Below are positions 1,965 to 49,289 of a stretch of 64,000 nucleotides of DNA, piece by piece (the stretch's first letter is position 1; each line of letters opens with the position of its first letter). Source of the DNA: Prorocentrum cordatum (Eukaryota). A program made the position numbers and the translations under genes. The notes under the pieces are model-generated. The model was not told the DNA's origin. It made no database searches and was given only the letters and a program-made list of their open reading frames with translations. Where the stretch lies: the NCBI GenBank assembly GCA_963575745.1, contig CAUYUJ010000007.1, positions 1 to 64,000 of the forward strand. The letters run 5' to 3'.

Positions 1965-2194
1965 CCAGTGGCCTTCGGCCCATCCCGTCTCAGTGCCTGG
2001 GTTGTGGGTTAGAGGCCTCTTGGGTGTTCGTTGGCATCTCGTGGGCGGCCTCTCGGGGGCCTCTTGCAGGCAGTTTTGAGGCCTCTTGGCGGCCGTTTGG
2101 TGGCCTCTTGGGCCCTCATTTTGAGCCTTGGGATTCTTGCTCCTTTGGGTTCTGTTGGGGGTACTCTTGGAGCGCTCTCGGGGTTTCTCCATCC

Positions 2195-2866
2195 ACAAAA
2201 TTCAACCCACGTTGCCTGCTTTCGAAAATCGAAAAGTGCTGCCTGGTCTGTCCGCGCTCTCTTCAAAGCCGCCCGCGGAGGAATATCGGACTGCCCAAAC
2301 GGACTTTCCGGCAACCGGCTCATGTCGCGGATGGCTTGCGCCAGCACGGCCGGGGGCAACAGTTCTGACCGACCCCTGGCCTCCGCCACCAGCGCCAAAG
2401 CTGCCTGCCCCCGTTGGATGTGGCCCGCAGGCTCGGTCTCTGCACCTAAGGCTGGGTGATTTGGGACGACAGGAGCTGGCGGTGGCTCGGCACGGCGGCT
2501 GGCTGGCTGCGACGACGCAGGGCGGCCGTCGGACCGCGCAGACTCCATCTCGCACAGCTCTACCAGCCGTACCACAAATGGCGGCGAGCACGAGGACAGC
2601 GACGGCCAAACCCGCTGAGCCTCCTGACATGCCAGCCCGCAAAAATCCAATGGATCTGTGGCCCCAGCCCTTGCGAGATCCGAGCAAAGAGCTGCGATAT
2701 CACGCCCTGGAGGATGTGCGCTCGCCGCCTGTCTGACCAGGTTTAACAGCACATTTGGCAAGACCAATTCCTGCGACGCCTCACCAGAGCTCCCAGCTCC
2801 CACAGCAAGCTGCCGCCCCGGCTGGGCCGCAGCGCTCGCGCGACTCTCATCGAGAAAACGAAGCAT
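2195..2866 (-). pseudogene. N-terminal part of ORF3 (probable YR ORF), interrupted after ...KQATWVEF
   Basis: ATG at 2866 (MLRFLDES...), directly downstream of the pol stop. Complex sequence runs until ~2195 and then switches to ccaagaggcc-type repeat. YR identity is inferred from position only; no catalytic motif lies in this part. Confidence 0.55.
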
Positions 2867-2870
2867 CACG

Positions 2871-2890
2871 CTGAGCCAAACGCTACGGAT
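2871..2890 (-). other. Degenerate DinoSL-like motif 4 nt upstream of the ORF3 ATG
   Basis: Minus strand ATCCGTAGCGTTTGGCTCAG versus DinoSL (T)CCGTAGCCATTTTGGCTCAAG; both ends conserved, with small deletions. Confidence 0.6.
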
Positions 2891-2989
2891 GGCATGCTGA
2901 CAACATGACTGCACTGGAATCCGACAAGAGGAGCAGCAGGCGCATATTTTCCGAAGCGGACCAGTGCAAACAGCCCTCCAGGTATTACT

Positions 2990-5163
2990 CTAGCGCCGCC
3001 ATGGGGCGTCCGGAGGATCTTCCCACGACACGCGCGAAAAACCTGCCTCGACCATCCGCTGCAAATCTGCTTCCTTGTGCTGCTGCCTCGTGGGCGCATC
3101 CGCGAGATTTAAATTGCTGGGCACGTAGAACGCATACAGAAGAGTGCCCGTCCTGGCGACGCGCAGCCATAAATGCCCGAGGAGATCATTCCAGTCTGGC
3201 TGTCGCGACGACCCGCGGAGCAAAGTGCCGAGAGCCGTCTGGTTATCTACAAACAAGACAACCTCAAGCTCGCCAAAGCTCTGGTTTTGAAGCCAGTGCA
3301 GTGCGCAAATCGCGGCCAACAGCTCCCAGGTGGCAACTTGTGTTTTTCTATAGCAAACCCAGCGCCAGACAGCACCGGAAACTCGTGCCGAGGACCAGAC
3401 GCGCGCGTTGGGCGCACAAACCACCCAGGCGAGGTCACCACCGCCAGTGGCGTCAGAGTAAACTATGCACTTTGTCCTGGCTGTGGGCTGCAAACAAAAT
3501 ACGCGCCGTTGCGGCACGCAGTCTAGAAACCGCAGCCACCACTGAAGCGCCCGCTCCAGGCGCCCGGTCCAACGCCCAGACTCCCCGGTAGAGTGGCGGA
3601 ACAGGGGTGCCAAATGCACACGCGCTGCTCGGCCGAAAACCGCTGAGGTTCCCCAACTGAGTTTGCTGGCCAACTTCTTGGCTTCTGCTGGGGAAATCGC
3701 CTGCCGCGCAAGAATGCCCTGAATCTGGCGCTTCCATCGCGAGAGCTTGTCAGGGCCAACCGACAATCGCACAGCGCAGGCCTCGCGCTCGACCGCGCAG
3801 TCAACTCCAAGGATCGGAGCCGCTGCTGACGCCGAAACGCGCTTGGAAGCGTCGAGCTCCCACCCTAGCAATTCAGATACCACCTCTGCGGCAACTGCGC
3901 TGGCCCCAGCTGGCGTTGCCAAGTGCGGCGCGCCCTCGAGGGTTCCGTCCAGCCCAAAAAGGTCGTCCACGAACCGGAGGAAAACAACATGGAACTGCTT
4001 GGCCAAAATTGCCCGGACGGCAGCGCCAAAGCGTTCCCAATTGTACACAGACGCGACAGCGCCGAAGGGACAAGCGAAAAGCTGCAGGCCCAGTCCGCGG
4101 GCCTCCGCCGAACCCCACGTTACCACCGCAAATTGCAGGTGGGAGCTCGCGAGGGGAAGGGTCTTGAACGCACCTACGAAATCCTCCTTGCGAAGCGCGG
4201 CTCCGCCAGCGCCCGCGCGGACAACCTTGCACGCCACGGCAACGAAATGGTCCAGCGTGTCGTGCTGGATGGCTTCACCTACTGACACAGCCGCATTCAC
4301 ACGGGATGCCGTGAAATCGTCGACGCAGCGCACCTTCCGTGAATCCCCTCTCCAGCCCTCGTCGGCTGGAAACCTGGCTGTGAGCACGCATGTGTCACGC
4401 AACGGGCGCCGCCTTGCGTGGCCATCGCTGGCCTCTTCGATGCATTTCTGCTCAAACGCATCGCGAACGGACTGCTCCACAGCCCGAGGCCGCCTCACAC
4501 GGCGACGCGTGACAGAGTTCAAAACTGGCGCCTGTGCGCGCAAAGAAACCGCATTTTCAGCGGGAGCAGAGAAAGAGATGCATGGCAGAACCCCGCTGCG
4601 CGGAATTTCGCCGATCAGAGGGAAACCACTCTGCAGGTCGCGCACCAGCCGGTCGTCGGGTCGTCGGGCCAGCTGATCGCCTCGAGCATCTCCGACAGAA
4701 CAAGCAAATTTTTCTTCGGACCAAGAACACTGCGGACGTGCGCAGGCAAACCCGCGAATTTGCCCGCCCACAGTGGGTCCAGCACGCGCTTGCGCTGCCG
4801 CCAGTACTCGAGGCTCGCAGCGCGGGACTCGGCCAACGCATGCCCGTCGAAGGCAAGCACCTGGCAAAGCGAGTCTGCCACAGCTGCAGGGATCTCGGGA
4901 AGCTCGTCACAGGACGGAAGACCCAGAGCCCAGTTCAAATGATCGAGCGGCGTGCAATCACGCACTGCAGGATCGTCCAGGAAGCTATGTACAGCCCTCC
5001 GCGCCGCAGCGACACGAGGACAATCGAGGCATGCAAACTGAAAAGGAAGCTCCGCCTCCCCCCGCGGGGCAGAACGGAGCGGAGACGCACCAACAGCACC
5101 GCCGGCGACAAAAGTGGCCGAAGCGTCGCTGGCAGCACTGCTGTTTCCGCTAACGGAAGCCGC
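2990..5163 (-). pseudogene. pol: reverse transcriptase + RNase H, with one frameshift from an 8-bp duplication
   Basis: RT motifs KVRCVDDF, EDFVGAFKTLPL, CPFGAVASVYNWER, FLRFVDD, ILGV. RNase H motifs YSDATG, WELLAA, FVDNQTA, YVPSNLNLADAPTR. ggtcgtcg is duplicated at 4651-4666; removing one copy joins ORF 4615-4965 to ORF 2990-4867 (ISWPDDRLVRDLQSGFPLIG). No methyltransferase domain after RNase H. Confidence 0.9.
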
Positions 5164-6429
5164 TCACTTCTTCCACGCTTTGGCGCCGCGGTCCTGGCTC
5201 TGCCAGCCGCCCTGCCAGCCGCCCTGCTGCTTGCGTGGGCTGCGCGAGCGCGGCGGCACCAACGGAGACCTGGGCGCAGGGGACTGCGCCGCCGAGCTGG
5301 CGGCAGAGCCGTGACCGGAACCGCCCTTCTGAGCGGCGCCGTCGGCTTTCCCCTTGCCCTTGCCCTTGGTGTGGGCGAACCTCGCAGCATCAGAAGCCCT
5401 GGCTGTCACCTTGTCCCTGGCCTCCTTGGCCAGGTCTCGGTCGATCCTGGAGAACATCACTTTCCAGTCGGCGTCGCCCTTCTCTAGGCCCTTGGCCATC
5501 GCTTTCCGCGCCAGGATGTCGTACTGGTACGCGGTGCGGGCGCCGCCGTGCTCCTCCGCCACCTTGGCCAGCAGGAAGCTGTACCCCAGGATGTCCAGGG
5601 GGGTGGCGGTTTTCATGAGGATCAGCTTGACTCCCCAATCAAGCAAATGGGCCTGGAAAGTGGCGTAGCCGGGGTAGTCGACCTCCGTAGCGGCGCGAGC
5701 GCGCTTCAGCTCGGCCATCAGCCGCTGGCGGTCGGGCACCGACCCTTCCCCAACGGGGACCTCGACGGCCGGCACGCGTGACCATGAAGGGCGAAAGTTC
5801 CTTTGCAGGTCCTCGCCTTCTGCGCTGCCGACGTACAGGCGGCCTTTATCACGTGCGACGCGGCCTGCCGCCTCGAAAACAGCCAAGTTCTCTTCCGATG
5901 GCAGCAGATCCTCCGGGAAGGTGGCCATGCCAAGCTCAGCAACCCGCTCAGACAGCTTAAAAGAAAGCGCCTTGGTTGACCGCTTGTGGGTGGCCGCCTG
6001 GGCTTCCAAGTACTCGCGCATCGTGGAAGCCAAGGCGGCCTCGGGAGTTGGAGGAGGCGGCTCCGTGGCCCCGCACTTCCTCTGAACACGGAGTGCGAAT
6101 GCGATCTGGGCTGGCTGCACTGCCCACGCACGGAACACGGGGCTCTCACCATCCTTGTCGTACGGCTTCTCGCCGTGTTTGATCGTGCTGCTGATGACGT
6201 CCCGCATGGCAGGCTCGGCCAAGTCCAGGGGAGAGATGGAGCCCATCGTCTCCCCCAGCAGGCGCCCGACGGACAGGTACCAGAAGAGGTCGTGCTTCGC
6301 CTTCGGCGACGGATCAACGCCGAGCAGGAACGAGCACCATTCCACCATGTCCTGTTGCGCCGCGCCTCCCAGGGCACCCTGGGGCAACCCAGCAACGAAG
6401 GCGAGCACATCCTGCTGCGCGAAAGCCAT
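5164..6429 (-). CDS. gag-like ORF1, 421 aa (MAFAQQDV...AKAWKK)
   Basis: First ATG after the repetitive leader, non-repetitive protein with a basic low-complexity C-terminus (KGKGKGK, RSRSPR), directly upstream of pol. Function inferred from position. Confidence 0.75.
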   Translation of the reverse strand: MAFAQQDVLAFVAGLPQGALGGAAQQDMVEWCSFLLGVDPSPKAKHDLFWYLSVGRLLGETMGSISPLDLAEPAMRDVISSTIKHGEKPYDKDGESPVFRAWAVQPAQIAFALRVQRKCGATEPPPPTPEAALASTMREYLEAQAATHKRSTKALSFKLSERVAELGMATFPEDLLPSEENLAVFEAAGRVARDKGRLYVGSAEGEDLQRNFRPSWSRVPAVEVPVGEGSVPDRQRLMAELKRARAATEVDYPGYATFQAHLLDWGVKLILMKTATPLDILGYSFLLAKVAEEHGGARTAYQYDILARKAMAKGLEKGDADWKVMFSRIDRDLAKEARDKVTARASDAARFAHTKGKGKGKADGAAQKGGSGHGSAASSAAQSPAPRSPLVPPRSRSPRKQQGGWQGGWQSQDRGAKAWKK

Positions 6430-6482
6430 TATGTGATGGCAGAAGACGCCAGCGTAGGGGGCGCAAACTGGGCGGCAGGCAG

Positions 6483-6504
6483 CTTGAGCCCAAGTGACTG
6501 CGCA
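6483..6504 (-). other. Degenerate full-length DinoSL-like motif 53 nt upstream of the ORF1 ATG
   Basis: TGCGCAGTCACTTGGGCTCAAG versus TCCGTAGCCATTTTGGCTCAAG: 17/22 identical with no gaps. Confidence 0.65.
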
Positions 6505-6659
6505 CAACGGCCAATACATGCCTGGAACGGGGCCTTGCCCCCTGGACGCGCCTGGGTCCGAAACGTCTCCACGTTCACTGCACGAGCGCTCAGCAGCCAA
6601 CCTGGGACGCAGCCAATGCGCAGCACACTGGGGCTGGCCCGACAGCAGACCTGGTCCCG

Positions 6660-7505
6660 AAGACACCGCCACACCTGGGGCAGAAGTGCCGCGCAGCACA
6701 CCAGGGGTAGCCCACCGCAGGCCGAGCCCACGTGGGCCCGCAGAAACTGCGCACCTGGCCAGAAACGATGGCTGGTATAGCCCCCAACAAAGCACCCCTG
6801 AGCCCGAAGAGGCTCCCGTGCGGCACAGACGGGCGGGCCGGCACAGGGCCGACAGAGCCCACCTGGGCCCCAAACACTGCCACACCTGGGGCAGAAGCCA
6901 TGTGCAGCACACCGGGGCTGGCAACGACCGAGCGCCCCTGGGCCCGAAAACGCTGCCTCTCCAGGGGCACGACGACACGCAGCAGCACTGGCTGCAACGG
7001 CCCGGCACACCTGGCTTGCACACTCTGCCACACCTGGGGCAGGAACGACTGGGCCCGAAACTGCAGCCACACCTGGGGCAGAAGCGATGCCCAGCACACC
7101 TGGACTGGACAACGCCACGCGAGCACACCTGGGCCCGAAACTGCTGCCACACCTGGGGCAGAGCGACGCACACCAGTACGGGCCTGACAACGCCAAGCGA
7201 GCACACCAGGGCCCGGAATTGCTGCCACACCTGGGGCAGAAGCGATGCACAGCACACCTGGGCCGCACAACGCCGAGCGAGCACACCTGGGCCCGAAAGC
7301 GCTGCCACACCTGGGGCAGAAGCGACGCACAGCACACCCGGGCTGCACCACGCCAGCGAGCACACCTGGGCCCGAAATTGCTGCCACACCTGGGGCAGAA
7401 ACGATGCACAGCACACCTGGGCTGTACAACGCCGAGCGAGCACACCTGGGCCCGAAAACGCTGCCACACCTGGGGCAGAAGCGATGCACAGCACAACTGG
7501 GCTGC
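6660..7505. repeat. Minisatellite in the element 5' leader, built on cacacctggg sub-repeats
   Basis: Recurrent gccacacctggggcagaagcgatgcacagcacacctggg...gagcacacctgggcccgaaa units. Confidence 0.9.
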
Positions 7506-7512
7506 CGATGCG

Positions 7513-7973
7513 GAGCAGTGCCAACCCCCAACCCGTGGCAACGAGAGCACGGGCACGGCTCAGAGTGGCGACGAGAGCACCAGCGACACGCAACCGCACC
7601 AGCCGAACCACGGGGTGGCCAGCGCTGAGGCGTTTGAACGGTAGCCGGCGCCGGGGCGAGAGCGAACAGCAACTGCCACAGGTGCTACCCGAGCACGCGG
7701 GGCAGTCTGGGACAAGAAGCCTGCCAATCAATCCCCAACCAGCCGCCAGCAACAGAAGCGGAGGACAAGCGGAAGGAGGCAGGGCGTGGCACCGCCAAAT
7801 CCGCCGGCCAGCGGCCACCGACTGTGAGAAAGGTCCGCCGCGCCGCCAGGGCACTGCCAAGCAGTGAGAGCGAGCATAGAAGGCCGCAGAGGCCCCGAGG
7901 GGAAGAGGCCACCAAGGGGGCCCGCTCCCAGGATTTTCCTGCCCCCCAAATCGCTGCGAGATTTCGGGGCGAC
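7513..7973 (-). repeat. Split direct repeat A1 (element 5' terminus)
   Basis: Reverse complement matches 469-1036. Confidence 0.9.
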
Positions 7974-10900
7974 AAAAAAGCTGATTTTCCCTGGGTGTTT
8001 GAACGATTTTGACATTTGCTTCGTTTCGGCCTTCCGGCGGCCCGATACGGCCCAAGAGCCCCCAAAGATCGCCCAAAGATCGCCCACGGGGCCCCAGAAC
8101 GGCCCAAGAGGCCCCAAAGACGACCCCGAGAGGCCCCCAAGACGGCCCAGGAAGCTTTTACGACGCCCAAGATGGCCTCCAAGACGGCCCTGGAGCATTC
8201 CAAGAGGGCCCCAAGTCGGCTCAGAGAGGCCCCCCAAACGGCTTCCGACGGCGTCGGACGGACCAGGGGCCCACCAAGACGGCCGAAGATGGCACTAAGA
8301 TGGCCCAAGACGGCCCAAGAGGCCTCCAAGAGGGCCTCCAGGAAGGCCCGAAAATGCCAAAATCATCGATGTCCCATGAGTTTTTGAAGGATTGTGGCAT
8401 TTGCGTTTTTTCGGCCTTCCGACGGCCCGAGACGGCCCAAGTGCCCCCGAAGATCGCCCAAGAGGCCCAAGACGGCCCCAAGAGGCCCCTAAGACGGCCC
8501 AAGAGGCCTCCAAGACGCTCAAGATGGCCTCCAAGACGTCCTCCAAGACGGCCTCCAAGGCCCGAAAGGGTCAAAATAGCCTCCAGGCGGCCAAGATGAC
8601 CTTCAAGATGCCCACGTGTTCCCCGAAGGCTTTCCAAACCGATTCGGGGAACACATGGTCCGATAGCTTGGCAGGTCTGGCCTCAACGTTCGACCACATA
8701 GGCGCTTCCAAAAAGGTGATTCGCCGTTGGCGTCTTCGATCCGCCGCCCCCTGTTGATTTATCACAGGGGTACCTGGCGTGCCAGATCTTTCGATTTTGG
8801 TTTTGTTTTTCTGTTCCAAAAAGAACTCCTCCTGGGGCTTCAGCCCGTCCCGCCGGCCACCCGAAGGGCGCATAATTCTCCCGAAAACTCTCCCAAGACG
8901 GCTCAAGATGGCTTTCAAAACCGCCCTGATGGCCCAAGATGGCCTCCAAGATGCCTCCAAGACGGCCAAGATGTCTTCCAAGACGGCCACGATGGCTCTA
9001 ACATGCATCCAAGACGGCCCAAGAGGCCTCCAAGACGGCTTCCAGGAGAGACAGAAGAGGCCGAAAACATTGGTTCTCCCCAGATTTGTTGATAGATTTG
9101 GGGATGTGTTTCTTTTGGGCCTTCCGACAGCCCAAGACGGCCCAAGAGGTTCCAAAGATCGCCCCAAGATCGCCCACTGGCCACCCGAAAGGAACCTCAA
9201 CGACCGCAAAAGATCCTCTAAGACGGCTCCAGAGGGCCTCCAAGATGGCCACGTTGGCCCAAGATGGCCTCCAAGATGGCCAAGATGGCCTCCAAGTCCG
9301 CCAAAGATGGTCCAAGATGGCATCCAAGGCGGCCCGAGAGAGTCCACGATGCCTTCAAGTTCGTCCAAGATGGCTCCAAGATGGCATCCTAAGGCTGCCC
9401 AAAAAGCCCCCAAGAGGCCTCCAAGACGTCCTCCAGGAAGGCCCGAAAGGACAAAAATCATTGATTCTCCCATAGAAATGTCATTAATTTTGGCATGTTC
9501 TTCTTATCAGCTCTCCGACGGCCCAGGACGGCCCAAGAGGTCCCAACATCGTCCCAAGAGCGCCCAAGAGGCCTCCAAGATGGCCCCATGACAGCCCAAG
9601 AGGCCCCCCAGAGGCTCCCGAGAAGGCCCCAAGACGGCCCAAGATGGCCCCGAAGACGCCCAAGATGGCCTCCAAGACGGCCAAGATGGCCTCCAAGATG
9701 CCTCCAAGACGACCAAGAAGGCCTCCAAAACAGCGAAGATGGCCCCAAGATGCACCCAAGACGGCCCCAGATGGCCTCAAGATGGCCTTAGACTGCCCAG
9801 AAGGCCCGCGAGAGGCCTGCAAGATGGCCCAAGAGGCCTCCAAGACGTCCTCCCGGAAGGCCGGAAAGGGTCAAAATGGCCTACAGACGGTCAAAATGGC
9901 CTACAGACGACCAAGATGACCTTCAAGATGCCTCCGAGTGTTCCCTGAAAGCTTTCCAAACCGATTCGGAGAACACTCGTTCCGAAAGATTGGCAAGGAT
10001 CTGACCCAACCTTCGGCCAGCAGGCCCCAAGACGCCTCCAAAAACTCACAAGAGCCCCCAAGGGGCCCCGAACACGCCCATTCCTCACTCTCCTCCTCTT
10101 CCCCGTCCTCCTCCACGTATTCCCCGACGGCTTTCCAAACCGATTCGGGGAACACATGGTCCCATAGCTTGACAGGGCTCTGGCCTCAACGTTCGGTCAC
10201 ATAGGCGCTTCCGAAAGGGCAGAGGGCGGCGGTGACTCGCCGTGGGCGTCTTCGATCCGCCGCCCCCTGCGCTTGTCACAGGGGTGTCTGGCGTGCTGGA
10301 CGCTACCGTTATTGTTTTTGGTTCTTTTTTCCAAAAGAACTCCCCCTGGGGCTCTGGCCCGGCCCGCCGGCCACCCGAAAAGGAGCACCAGTCCCGGAAA
10401 CAATCTCAACGTCCAAAAAAAATCTTTTCGGGTCAATGCCTTTCCCGCTCCAAGATGGCCCTAGACGGCCTCCAAGACGGCTCAAATGGCCCGTGATGGC
10501 CTCCAAGTTCGCGCACTATGGTCCAAAATGGCCTCCACGACGGCCCAGGAGGGTCCAAGATGCCTCCAAGTCGGCCCAAGAAGCCTCCAAGACGGCCCAA
10601 GAGGCCTCCCTGAGGTCCTCCAGGAAGGCCCGAAGAGGCCAAAAGCATTGTTTTTTTCAGTTGGTTTTTGATAGATTTGGGTATTTGCTTCTTGTCGGCC
10701 TTCCGACGGCCCGAGACGGCCCACGAGCCCCCAAAGGTCGCCCCAAGATCGCCCACGAGGCCTCCAAGGGGGCCCCAGAACGGCACAAGAGTCCCCCAAG
10801 ACGGTCCCAACATGGCCCCAAGACGGCCCGAGAGGTCTCCAAGACGCCCAAGATGGCCTCCAAGACGGCCCTGAAGCACCCCAAGAGGCCCCTGGCGCCC

Positions 10901-11867
10901 AAGTCGGCCCAGAGAGGCCCTCAAGACGGCTTCCGAGGGCGTCAGACGGGCCAGGAGGCCACCAAGACGGCCCAAGATGCCTCCAAGATGGCCCAAGACG
11001 GCCCAAGAGGCCCCCAAGAGGTCTCCAAGACGGCCCCAGAGGCCCCCAAGAGGGCCTCCAGGAAGGCCCCAAGAAGCCAAAATCACTGATTTCCCTTGAA
11101 GTGTTTGATGTATTTGGGCATGTGCTTCTTCTCGATCTTCCGACGGCCCGAGACGGCCCAAGAGCCCCCGAAGATCGCCCCATCGCCCAAGATGCCTCCA
11201 AGATGGTCCCAGAACGGCCCAAGAGGGCCCCAAGACGGCACCAAGAGGACCCCAAGACGGCCCAAGAGGCATCCAAAACGCCCAAGATGGCCTCCAAGAC
11301 GGCCATGGAGCACGCCAAGAGGGCCCCAAGTCGGCCAAGAGAGGCCCACAAGACGGCTTCCGACGGCGTCAGACGGGTCAGGAGGCCATCAAGACGGTCT
11401 CCAAGACGGCCCAAGAGGCCCCCAAGAGGGCCGCCAGGAAGGCCCGAAGAGGCCAAAAGCATTGATTATCCGTACGTGTATGACTGATTTGGGCATTTGC
11501 TTCTGTTCGGCCTTCTCACGGCCCGAGACGGCCCAAGAGCCCCGAAGATCGCCCCAAGATCGCCCAAGAGGCCTCCAAGATGGTCCGAGAAAGGCCCAAG
11601 AGGCCCCCAAGTCGGCACCAAAATGCCCAAGATGGCCTCCAAGACGGCCCTGGAGCACCCCAAGAGGGCCCCAAATCGGCCCAGAGAGGCCCCCAAGACG
11701 GCTTCCGACGGCCTTAGACGGACCAGGAATGCCCTCAGACAGCCAAAGAGGCCCCCGGGAAGCCCCCCGAAGGCCGCCAAAGGAGGCCCCCAAGATACTT
11801 CCAAAAGGCTCCCAGGAAACTCCAATAAGGCCCCAAGAGTGCCCCCAGAGGCTCCCAAGATACCCCC

Positions 11868-12280
11868 TCGTCCTCCTCCTCCTCCTCCTCCTCCTCCTCC
11901 TCCTCCTCCTCCTCCTCCTCCTCCTCCTCTCCTGCTCCTCCTCCCCCTCCTCCTCCTCCTCCTCCTTCTCCTCCCCCTCCTCCTCCTGATCCTCCTCCTC
12001 CTCCTCCTCCTTCTCCTCCTCCTCCCTCCTCCTCCTCCTGATCCTCCTCCTCCTCCTCCTCCTCCTCCTCCTCCTTCTCCTTCCCCTCCTCTTCCTGATC
12101 CTCCCTCCTCCTCCTCCTCTCTCCTCCTCCTCCTCCTCCTCCTCCTCCTCCTCCTATCCTCCTCCTCCTCCTCCTCCTCCTCCTCCTCCTCCTCCTCCTC
12201 CTCCCCCTCCTCCTCCTCCTCCTCCTCCTCCTCGTCCTCCCTCCCCCACTTCCTCCTCCTCCAACTTCCCCTCCTCCTGA
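11868..12280. repeat. (CCT)n microsatellite
   Basis: Direct observation. Confidence 0.95.
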
Positions 12281-48445: not shown

Positions 48446-49289
48446 GTGTCCCGCACCCTGTGATTTATCGATCGGGATTTCAAAAACAAGCGTTTCGCCT
48501 GAGACATCCTCAAATTTTAATCCGCCGGCCTCCTTCGACCTCGATATTTATCAGGGAAAGAATCCGCCGGCCTCCTTCAAGTTGGGCACCGGGGACATGT
48601 TTACATACTAAAAGAGAACCCTGGGCCAAAGCCCTTTCCGGGAAAAAGGATCCCCGCCTGCCTCCGTAGCCTCGAGCTCAAGCCGCCTCGGCCCGAGCCC
48701 GCCCCTGGTCCGGGTTCACGCCGGGCCCCCCGTCGCGATGGCTTCCAGCGCCGCCCTGCGACGGCGGCAGCACCTTACCGCCGCCGCCCGGGACGGGCCG
48801 CCCCGCCCGGGTCCTCCGCATGCCGCTGCTGCGGATGCAAGCCGCCGCCGCCTCCCCCCTGGAGGCTGGCGCGCGGGAGGCGGCGGCGGCTGGCGGCGGC
48901 GGCGGCCGGCCCAGCTGAACCCCCGCTGGCGCCTGGCCGCCGCCGCCCGGGCTTGCGGCGGTTGCCGCCGCCGCTGCCGCTGCCGCTGCCGCTGCCGCTG
49001 CCGATGCCGGCTCCCCGCCGGCGGAGGCGGCGGCGGGGCGCGCGGCGGTGGCCCGGCGCCGCCGCGGCCGCCCCCGCCGTCGCGGCGTGGCGCGGGCGCC
49101 GCCGCCGCCACCGCTGCCCGCCCGCGGCTCCCCTCCGGCGGCGGCGGCAGCGGCGGCGCGCGGACAGCGTGACGGCCGCTGTCGCGGCGGCCGCTGCTGC
49201 CGCCGCTGCCGCCGCCGCTGCCGGCCCCCTGCCGGCGGCGGCGGCGGCGGTTGGCGCGGTGGCCAGCGCCGCCGCGGCAGCATGCCGCT

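Follow-up and report, generated by a model that had tools for sequence, protein, structure and literature searches.

Spliced-leader-like motifs ahead of gag and ahead of the recombinase gene in a dinoflagellate tyrosine-recombinase retroelement: candidate relicts of its own trans-spliced mRNAs

The window analyzed here is a stretch of 64,000 nucleotides (nt) from the dinoflagellate Prorocentrum cordatum (assembly GCA_963575745.1, contig CAUYUJ010000007.1, positions 1 to 64,000). On its minus strand lies a retroelement whose parts follow one another in the order leader block, tandem repeats, gag, pol behind a TGA stop codon, and a recombinase open reading frame (ORF), here called ORF3 (Table 1). 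In dinoflagellates, nuclear mRNAs receive one and the same leader, and a large fraction of the genes consists of retro-copies that bear relict leaders; to our knowledge, little has been written on how trans-splicing is dealt with by the retrotransposons from which the reverse transcriptase (RT) comes. A preceding inspection of the letters alone (hereafter the sequence-only reading) had reported a tyrosine-recombinase (YR) retrotransposon with two motifs resembling the dinoflagellate spliced leader (SL, DinoSL), one before gag and one before ORF3, and none before pol. Both motifs can be read directly on the minus strand at the positions reported, sense to the ORFs and inside the element. Our proposal, which we hold with a probability of roughly 0.6, is that they go back to leaders once spliced onto the gag-pol and recombinase mRNAs of the element itself and survive as relicts in its DNA after recombination.

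Table 1. Positions of the element, its SL-like motifs and adjoining repeats in the window.
Feature	Position	Strand	Remarks
SL-like motif 1, TGCGCAGTCACTTGGGCTCAAG	6504-6483	minus	53 nt 5' of the gag ATG
SL-like motif 2, ATCCGTAGCGTTTGGCTCAG, i.e. (A)TCCGTAGCGTTTGGCTCAG	2890-2871	minus	followed by CGTG, then the ORF3 ATG at 2866
ORF1, gag-like, 421 amino acids (aa)	6429-5164	minus	from translation; TGA at 5166-5164
pol (RT + RNase H)	5163-2990	minus	in the gag frame directly after the TGA; TAG at 2992-2990
ORF3, N-terminal ~225 codons of a tyrosine recombinase	2866-2184	minus	open frame runs into the repeat, stop at 2009
Third SL-like match	4021-3998	minus	inside RT coding sequence (AVRAILAK); 4 edits from the SL, local score 26
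Tandem array 5' of gag	7505-6590	minus	80-nt unit, 5.8 good copies at 7049-7505, degenerate to ~6590; Tandem Repeats Finder (TRF), self-BLAST
5' leader block 'A'	7983-7513	minus	outer edge at ~7980 abuts the 'B' repeat
Inverted copy of leader block A	459-1036	plus	93-100% complementary to 7513-7983
'B'-type host repeat	2183-1230		replaces the 3' part of the element; TRF; inverted matches to 8031-11775

For comparison, 67 related loci (L-numbers) were taken from a profile scan of metagenome contigs. In L001, L002 and L004, tblastn finds relatives of ORF1 ahead of pol, and the window pol has ten homologs at 42-70% identity. A Pfam search of the window ORFs, ORF1 included, gave no family at E up to 0.1, and neither a protease nor a DDE integrase was detected in pol at that threshold; the match of pol to RVT_1, around FVDD, is marginal (E 0.014-0.16). 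Sequence searches of the PDB with pol returned nothing meaningful, and a pol profile run on viral contigs gave 30 pattern matches, none of which was confirmed. The AlphaFold (AF2) model of pol (pLDDT 77) is matched in Foldseek by HIV-1 p66 and by the RTs of murine leukaemia virus (MLV), foamy virus and cauliflower mosaic virus (CaMV) over about 480-600 columns (E 2e-11, prob 1.00). According to this model, pol is predicted to comprise an RT and an RNase H, which together with a conserved N-terminal region fully use its length.

One in-frame stop separates gag from pol, and pol is without a methionine for about 160 codons, a stretch conserved in its relatives; the same layout is found in L010. 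L009 was rejected as a further example, because pol lies in another frame there and is too frameshifted. The position of pol in the gag frame behind a single TGA implies that it needs neither an ATG nor a leader-like motif of its own. This explains why the sequence-only reading saw no motif and no nearby ATG before pol: from the gag stop to the conserved start of pol we also found nothing SL-like (best local score 15). The 80 nt after the gag TGA (5163-5080, minus strand) fold into a long hairpin of -36.3 kcal/mol (RNAfold, without a shuffle control); the corresponding value in L010 is -7.5.

A word-indexed homology search with ORF3 gave no match, and an exhaustive phmmer search gave 11 relatives, which carry the R..K..HxxR..W..Y residues of tyrosine recombinases. 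Two of them are full-length, P0017 (492 aa) and P0025 (500 aa), and contain a domain with LR..E, RRK, THxxRRG, GxW and Y. Furthermore, ORF3 of L010 is recognized as Pfam Phage_integrase (29.1 bits vs a cut-off of 27.1), the ORF3 family profile matches the catalytic C-terminus of Cre (E 1e-5), and the model of P0017 (pLDDT 67.5) is matched best in Foldseek by Cre, XerH and the P2 and lambda integrases (prob 1.00, E 2.5e-3). The recombinase follows pol in L003, L007, L009, L010 and L048. From the RT/RNase H fold of pol, the recombinase relatives and this gene order it follows that the family is a tyrosine-recombinase (DIRS-order) retroelement. The designation as a YR retrotransposon thus applies to the family, in which an R-K-H-R-(W/H)-Y recombinase takes the place of a DDE integrase; the window copy itself has lost the catalytic half of that enzyme. 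A full-length recombinase relative of 492 aa stands on contigs of only 1554 and 1534 nt, a weak hint at a possible stand-alone recombinase transcript.

The evidence is strongest for the motif before ORF3. Motif 2, 4 nt ahead of the ATG, is 4 edits away from the 21-nt SL core, with 18 SL positions kept, 3 deleted and 1 substituted. In a positional test, in which the best local alignment to the SL within the 120 nt before an ATG is compared with 2000 shuffles of those 120 nt, its score was reached by none of the shuffles. The closest relative that covers the start of ORF3, L003 (pol C-terminus 69% identical), carries TCCGTATCCATTAGGGCTCAAA, a match of 18/22 to the SL that leaves a single base to the ATG of the ORF homologous to ORF3 (MLQFVDKSR vs MLRFLDESR in the window) and whose score was likewise reached by 0 of 2000 shuffles. 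The two copies are each 18/22 (82%) identical to the SL, only 15/22 identical to each other, and have no deviation from the SL in common. When the window is compared with L003, the final 300 nt of pol show 67% identity, and the ~105-nt spacer from the pol stop to the motif is alignable at 55%, vs 51% after shuffling. In both of them, and also in contigs ~99% identical to the window, the motif stands between pol and ORF3; two of these contigs span the junction from pol through the motif to ORF3 (record 1 of X1, 2184-3619; record 10 of X2, 2837-3231). Hence, the motifs belong to the transposing unit. With an independent copy at the homologous start codon of L003, beyond a randomized spacer, the derivation of motif 2 from the SL, as put forward in the sequence-only reading, is well supported.

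The pattern is star-like, since both copies are close to the SL and share no derived change, as predicted if each had decayed from the canonical leader, or been re-copied from it, on its own. A signal of the element's own with no more than a resemblance to the leader would not be expected to give such a pattern. Moreover, the spacer has been randomized while both copies have stayed 82% leader-like, so the copies must be either renewed occasionally or maintained by selection. It is on the second of these options that an alternative view builds, namely that the motifs only mimic the leader and are maintained by selection for a role as cis signals, such as a trans-splice acceptor, an internal promoter core or a translation signal. 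Apart from the high identity to the SL in two lineages with a randomized spacer, it can draw on Song et al. 2017 (PMC5585692), where TTTT, TTTG and TTGG are reported to be preferentially retained in relicts and a promoter role is proposed, and on a 23-nt motif before pol and ORF3 of L007, which indicates that intercistronic signals exist in the group. However, each copy departs from the SL at positions that the other has kept, neither the AG at positions 6-7 nor the TTTT run survives in L003, and the motif is missing from more distant relatives; independent decay or re-copying fits these data better than a common constrained signal. We therefore regard mimicry as improbable. The motif of L007 deserves a description of its own: it is exact apart from one Y position, lies at 2699-2721 and 5037-5059, about 125-180 nt before the pol ATG and before the recombinase ORF (pol of L007 has its own ATG), and two matches were obtained in 0 of 200 shuffles. 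It may be an element-specific intercistronic signal.

Another possibility is that the recombinase came in from outside, by retroposition beside gag-pol of an mRNA that carried a leader and derived from a host gene or a Crypton-like element; motif 2 would then be the fossil of this capture. A full-length relict directly before an ATG is indeed the standard mark of a retroposed gene (PMC3229502, PMC5585692). Yet recombinase ORFs follow pol without a relict in L007, L009, L010 and L048, whose pol is only 26-42% identical to that of the window; the presence of the gene behind pol in such distant relatives implies that it predates the split between the window element and L003. In addition, the neutral spacer between these two is already saturated, and a fossil of such age should have vanished. 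A capture of this kind appears very improbable to us. With start codons of distant relatives taken as the first ATG of the ORF, the ORF3 starts of the same four loci show no significant similarity to the SL (p 0.14-0.86).

What is less clear-cut is the origin of the motif before gag. Motif 1 matches DinoSL, DCCGTAGCCATTTTGGCTCAAG, at 17 of 22 positions, and its score in the positional test corresponds to p = 0.0015 (120 nt 5' of the gag ATG, 2000 shuffles); its 3' 15-mer agrees with the truncated-relict form at 12 of 15 positions (p 0.0016). An echo is present in L004 (pol ~43% identical), where ATCCGTGGCTCAAG (TCCGT..GGCTCAAG) ends 59 nt before that locus's own gag ATG (p 0.005) and comes directly after its own tandem array. 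The stretches between motif and ATG, 53 nt in the window and 59 nt in L004, are unrelated in sequence. Tandem arrays 5' of gag also occur in L007 and L048, and with the arrays ahead of gag being a family trait, motif 1 must be considered internal to the element. A derivation of the 5' half of motif 1 from the tail of the tandem array was rejected, as its alignment to the array is not significant (p 0.147). At the gag starts of L001, L007 and L010 the similarity to the SL is not significant (p 0.19-0.89). The claim of an SL-derived motif before gag is therefore moderately supported: the echo in L004 speaks for it, the other three loci do not.

By position both matches stand out from background (p = 0.0015 and 0/2000), but at window scale neither motif is rare. 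In the shuffle test suggested by the sequence-only reading (100 dinucleotide shuffles of the window, searched on both strands), SL matches of at least 17/22 occurred at a mean of 0.13 per shuffled window (13 shuffles with at least one), and matches with at most 4 edits at a mean of 0.17 (17 shuffles with at least one). As a natural background, the window was divided into 2116 half-overlapping segments of 120 nt, 18 of which score at least 24, the score of motif 1. These collapse to nine sites: three canonical relict loci, three sites in the element and three others. The last three (~60262-60237 and ~42076-42060 on the minus strand, 48663-48682 on the plus strand, the latter about 55 nt before an ATG) each begin with TCCGTA and are probably old, decayed relicts.

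One of the matches, the third one inside the RT coding sequence, is judged a coincidence. It is not conserved, as the same site scores 10-14 in L001, L002 and L004, i.e. in all three relatives in which it could be located; with 0 of 3 relatives retaining it, it serves as a negative control for the recurrence of the motifs. A match of this quality that is evidently coincidental, together with the window-scale expectations of 0.13 and 0.17, might be taken to mean that both motifs, too, are chance matches in GC-rich, repeat-rich sequence. This is contradicted by the 18/22 copy at the same base-level position in L003, by the score at the ORF3 start, reached by 0/2000 shuffles in the window as well as in L003, and by the fact that every natural match this good outside the element has the look of a real relict. 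Given the placement of the motifs and their recurrence, chance is unlikely, and we give almost no credence to a coincidence at both places.

Over the 67 loci (251 kb), SL-like sites with at most 5 edits number 10 in sense and 5 in antisense orientation; this overall enrichment was left unused, as the density is not above that of the real relicts in the window. The 8-mer GGCTCAAG, which forms part of motif 1, occurs six times in sense and once in antisense in the same loci, with ~3.8 expected per strand at equal base use. Its overlap with the ORF3 start in L015 and L016, where it codes for M-A-Q-G, was taken as coincidence. In L001 (~5005-5025) and L009 (~2757-2775), the pol stop TAG is embedded in GCGTAGCAA(A)AGTGG(G)C, which echoes the leader's CGTAGCCATTTTGGC faintly and without significance (L009 p 0.14).

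Several observations weigh against relict leaders at both places. Motif 1 is without the TCCGTA head that every other strong natural match possesses, a match of its quality is present in 13 of 100 shuffled windows, and it recurs in only one of the four relatives that cover the gag start region; motif 2 recurs in one of five that cover the start of ORF3. The case for each motif thus depends on one informative relative, L003 for motif 2 and L004 for motif 1; the more diverged contig copies over the motifs, such as record 24 of X3 at 6247-6539, do not enter into it. The copy in L003 has no AG at SL positions 6-7, contrary to a strictly conserved acceptor, and the element motifs are single units, without the tandem truncated relicts (CCATTTTGGCTCAAG units) that repeated recycling leaves behind. 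The points on motif 1, along with the lack of GGCTCAAG enrichment over the 67 loci and the three relatives out of four in which the gag start shows nothing significant, would be accommodated if only motif 2 were a true relict, motif 1 being a chance combination of the 8-mer with scattered matches and its echo in L004 chance as well. Against this stand the positional p values (0.0015 in the window, 0.005 in L004), the agreement of the 3' 15-mer with the truncated-relict form, and the placement shared by the window and L004, with both motifs 53-59 nt before gag, after a tandem array, and followed by unrelated sequence. We consider such a restriction to motif 2 unlikely, albeit the most serious of the alternatives.

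Genuine relict leaders of the host are available in the window for comparison. Canonical relicts with 1-3 mismatches each are located at 14377-14356, 34738-34702 and 63003-62982, and none was obtained in the 100 shuffles. The second belongs to an array at 34738-34688 (minus strand), 142 nt before an ORF of 167 aa (34559-34059), which consists of a full leader with 1 mismatch, then CCATTTTGGCTCAAG, then a decayed CCGTATCGGCTCAGG. This decayed unit shows the same style of internal loss as the motifs in the element. The relict at 14377-14356 (minus strand) precedes by 5 nt an ORF of 369 aa (14350-13244), presumably with a Cys-rich, RING-CH-like stretch, as seen by eye, and the one at 63003-62982 (minus strand) precedes an ORF of 250 aa by 112 nt. 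In L026, a near-perfect leader (1 edit) at 4641-4662 lies 7 nt before an ATG, 3' of the recombinase-like region of that locus (pol 28%); it could belong to a neighboring retrogene or to a fourth cistron.

The reading that we prefer, relict leaders from the element's own mRNAs, can be outlined as follows. The element would be transcribed across all three ORFs and processed like polycistronic RNA of the host. A leader spliced on about 50-60 nt before gag would yield the gag(-pol) mRNA, from which gag and, via read-through of the TGA, gag-pol could be translated; a second leader, spliced on immediately before the recombinase ORF, would yield a subgenomic mRNA. If reverse transcription then began on a processed mRNA and switched to the full-length template, or if the cDNAs recombined, the leader would be written into the element at exactly two places. 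The copies may be refreshed repeatedly by the same route or kept by selection, which might act on an already proven AG splice acceptor or on a TTT(T/G) promoter-like core. The splicing at both sites, the read-through, the subgenomic mRNA and the route of recombination are what we infer from the arrangement of genes and motifs. As a tentative extension, for which we would claim rather less, SL trans-splicing may be built into the life cycle of this YR family. The leader copies in the element would then define a gag-pol mRNA and a recombinase mRNA and be continually rewritten, by template switching in reverse transcription, from the trans-spliced mRNAs that the element produces; the internal relict would then be a living record of recombination from subgenomic mRNA to genome and not a fossil.

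The window copy of the element is defective, with a frameshift in pol and a truncated ORF3. An extra 8 nt near 4651-4658 break the pol frame. The 8 letters are absent from ~99% identical contigs of X1, X3 and X5 (X1, X2, X3 and X5 are four runs, all of them DNA contigs), and, by count of letters, the two pol frames become one when these are left out. The homology of ORF3 to its relatives ends at WVEFCGWR, about position 2189, and record 1 of X1 matches the window from 3619 down to 2184, then continues with ~1022 nt unlike the window; loose contig ends are found at 2143-2183. Because the 'B' repeat fills the adjoining positions, the catalytic half of the recombinase and the true 3' end are missing. 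The repeat is very abundant, with CCAAGACGGCC-like units of 10-43 nt at 1230-2184 and 7972-11860. It is oppositely oriented on either side of the element, with (CCT)n at 11866-12000; the element is situated in or beside this array.

At the other end, B-type matches begin at about 7972 (BLAST), close to the outer edge of leader block A. Block A occurs at only two places within the window (BLAST), and no second copy of the coding part was found there. The inverted block A represents either a terminal inverted repeat of the DIRS1 type or a head-to-head partial second copy. DIRS-order elements typically end in inverted terminal repeats accompanied by an internal complementary region (DIRS1) or in split direct repeats (Ngaro, PAT). 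The inverted block bears on the question of such termini, but as the 3' part is replaced, the two blocks may stem from different copies; in the partial relatives, no terminal repeats were found. Two 100% identical direct repeats of 120 nt (349-468 and 1113-1232) bracket the inverted block and point to a recent rearrangement or an assembly artefact. Assembly gaps in the window amount to 200 N in total, the first at ~26416 and the last at ~46183.

Should the proposed origin be correct, a relict between two genes of the element predicts that trans-splicing is used to make a subgenomic mRNA for the integrating enzyme, and it would constitute a trace, at the DNA level, of recombination between that mRNA and the genomic RNA of the element. 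For annotation, it means that some 'retrogenes' called by a relict leader ahead of them may in fact be internal cistrons of transposons. The placement of pol has a counterpart in gammaretroviruses, in which gag and pol share one frame with one stop between them and pol is made by stop-codon read-through. The window element likewise has gag and pol in one frame, a single stop and a pol without start codon; its stop is a TGA, and read-through would be assumed here by analogy.

Relict leaders before retroposed dinoflagellate genes have been described as 'mRNA recycling' (Slamovits and Keeling 2008, via PMC3229502 and PMC7245778). Like these relicts, the motifs are similar beyond chance to the 22-nt leader, encoded in DNA, sense, just 5' of an ORF, and decayed by substitutions and internal deletions. 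Unlike them, they lie inside an autonomous retroelement, one of them between two genes, and have element sequence upstream; they are single units instead of arrays of truncated units, and neither is located where unrelated sequence ends and a retroposed cDNA begins. What would be new are the relict leaders in a YR element and the second relict before an internal downstream cistron, those before retrogenes being already known. Full-text literature searches, covering main texts, brought up no account of a relict leader within an autonomous retrotransposon or ahead of an internal cistron, and a preprint (10.1101/783902) argues against an overlap between leader-tagged genes and RT genes.

The closest known relatives in element type are the DIRS-like elements of Symbiodinium (SymbioDIRS, with or without Dnmt3; de Mendoza et al. 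2018, PMC5890265). They share with the window element an RT too divergent for Pfam RVT_1, an RNase H, a separate tyrosine-recombinase ORF and a dinoflagellate host, and their repeats follow the layout A-coding-B-A-B. Unlike SymbioDIRS with Dnmt3, the window element has no DNMT domain detectable in its ORFs (Pfam, E up to 0.1), and the terms 'spliced leader' and 'DinoSL' are absent from the text of PMC5890265. For the use of trans-splicing by a retroelement, the nearest parallel is Cer1, a Ty3/gypsy element of C. elegans, whose subgenomic mRNA is trans-spliced to SL1, while the full-length gag-pol RNA must escape splicing (PMC3315495). Cer1 differs in host, in element order and in the downstream gene, and its DNA does not encode the leader; with its two classes of RNA, however, it may serve as a working analogy for the element described here.

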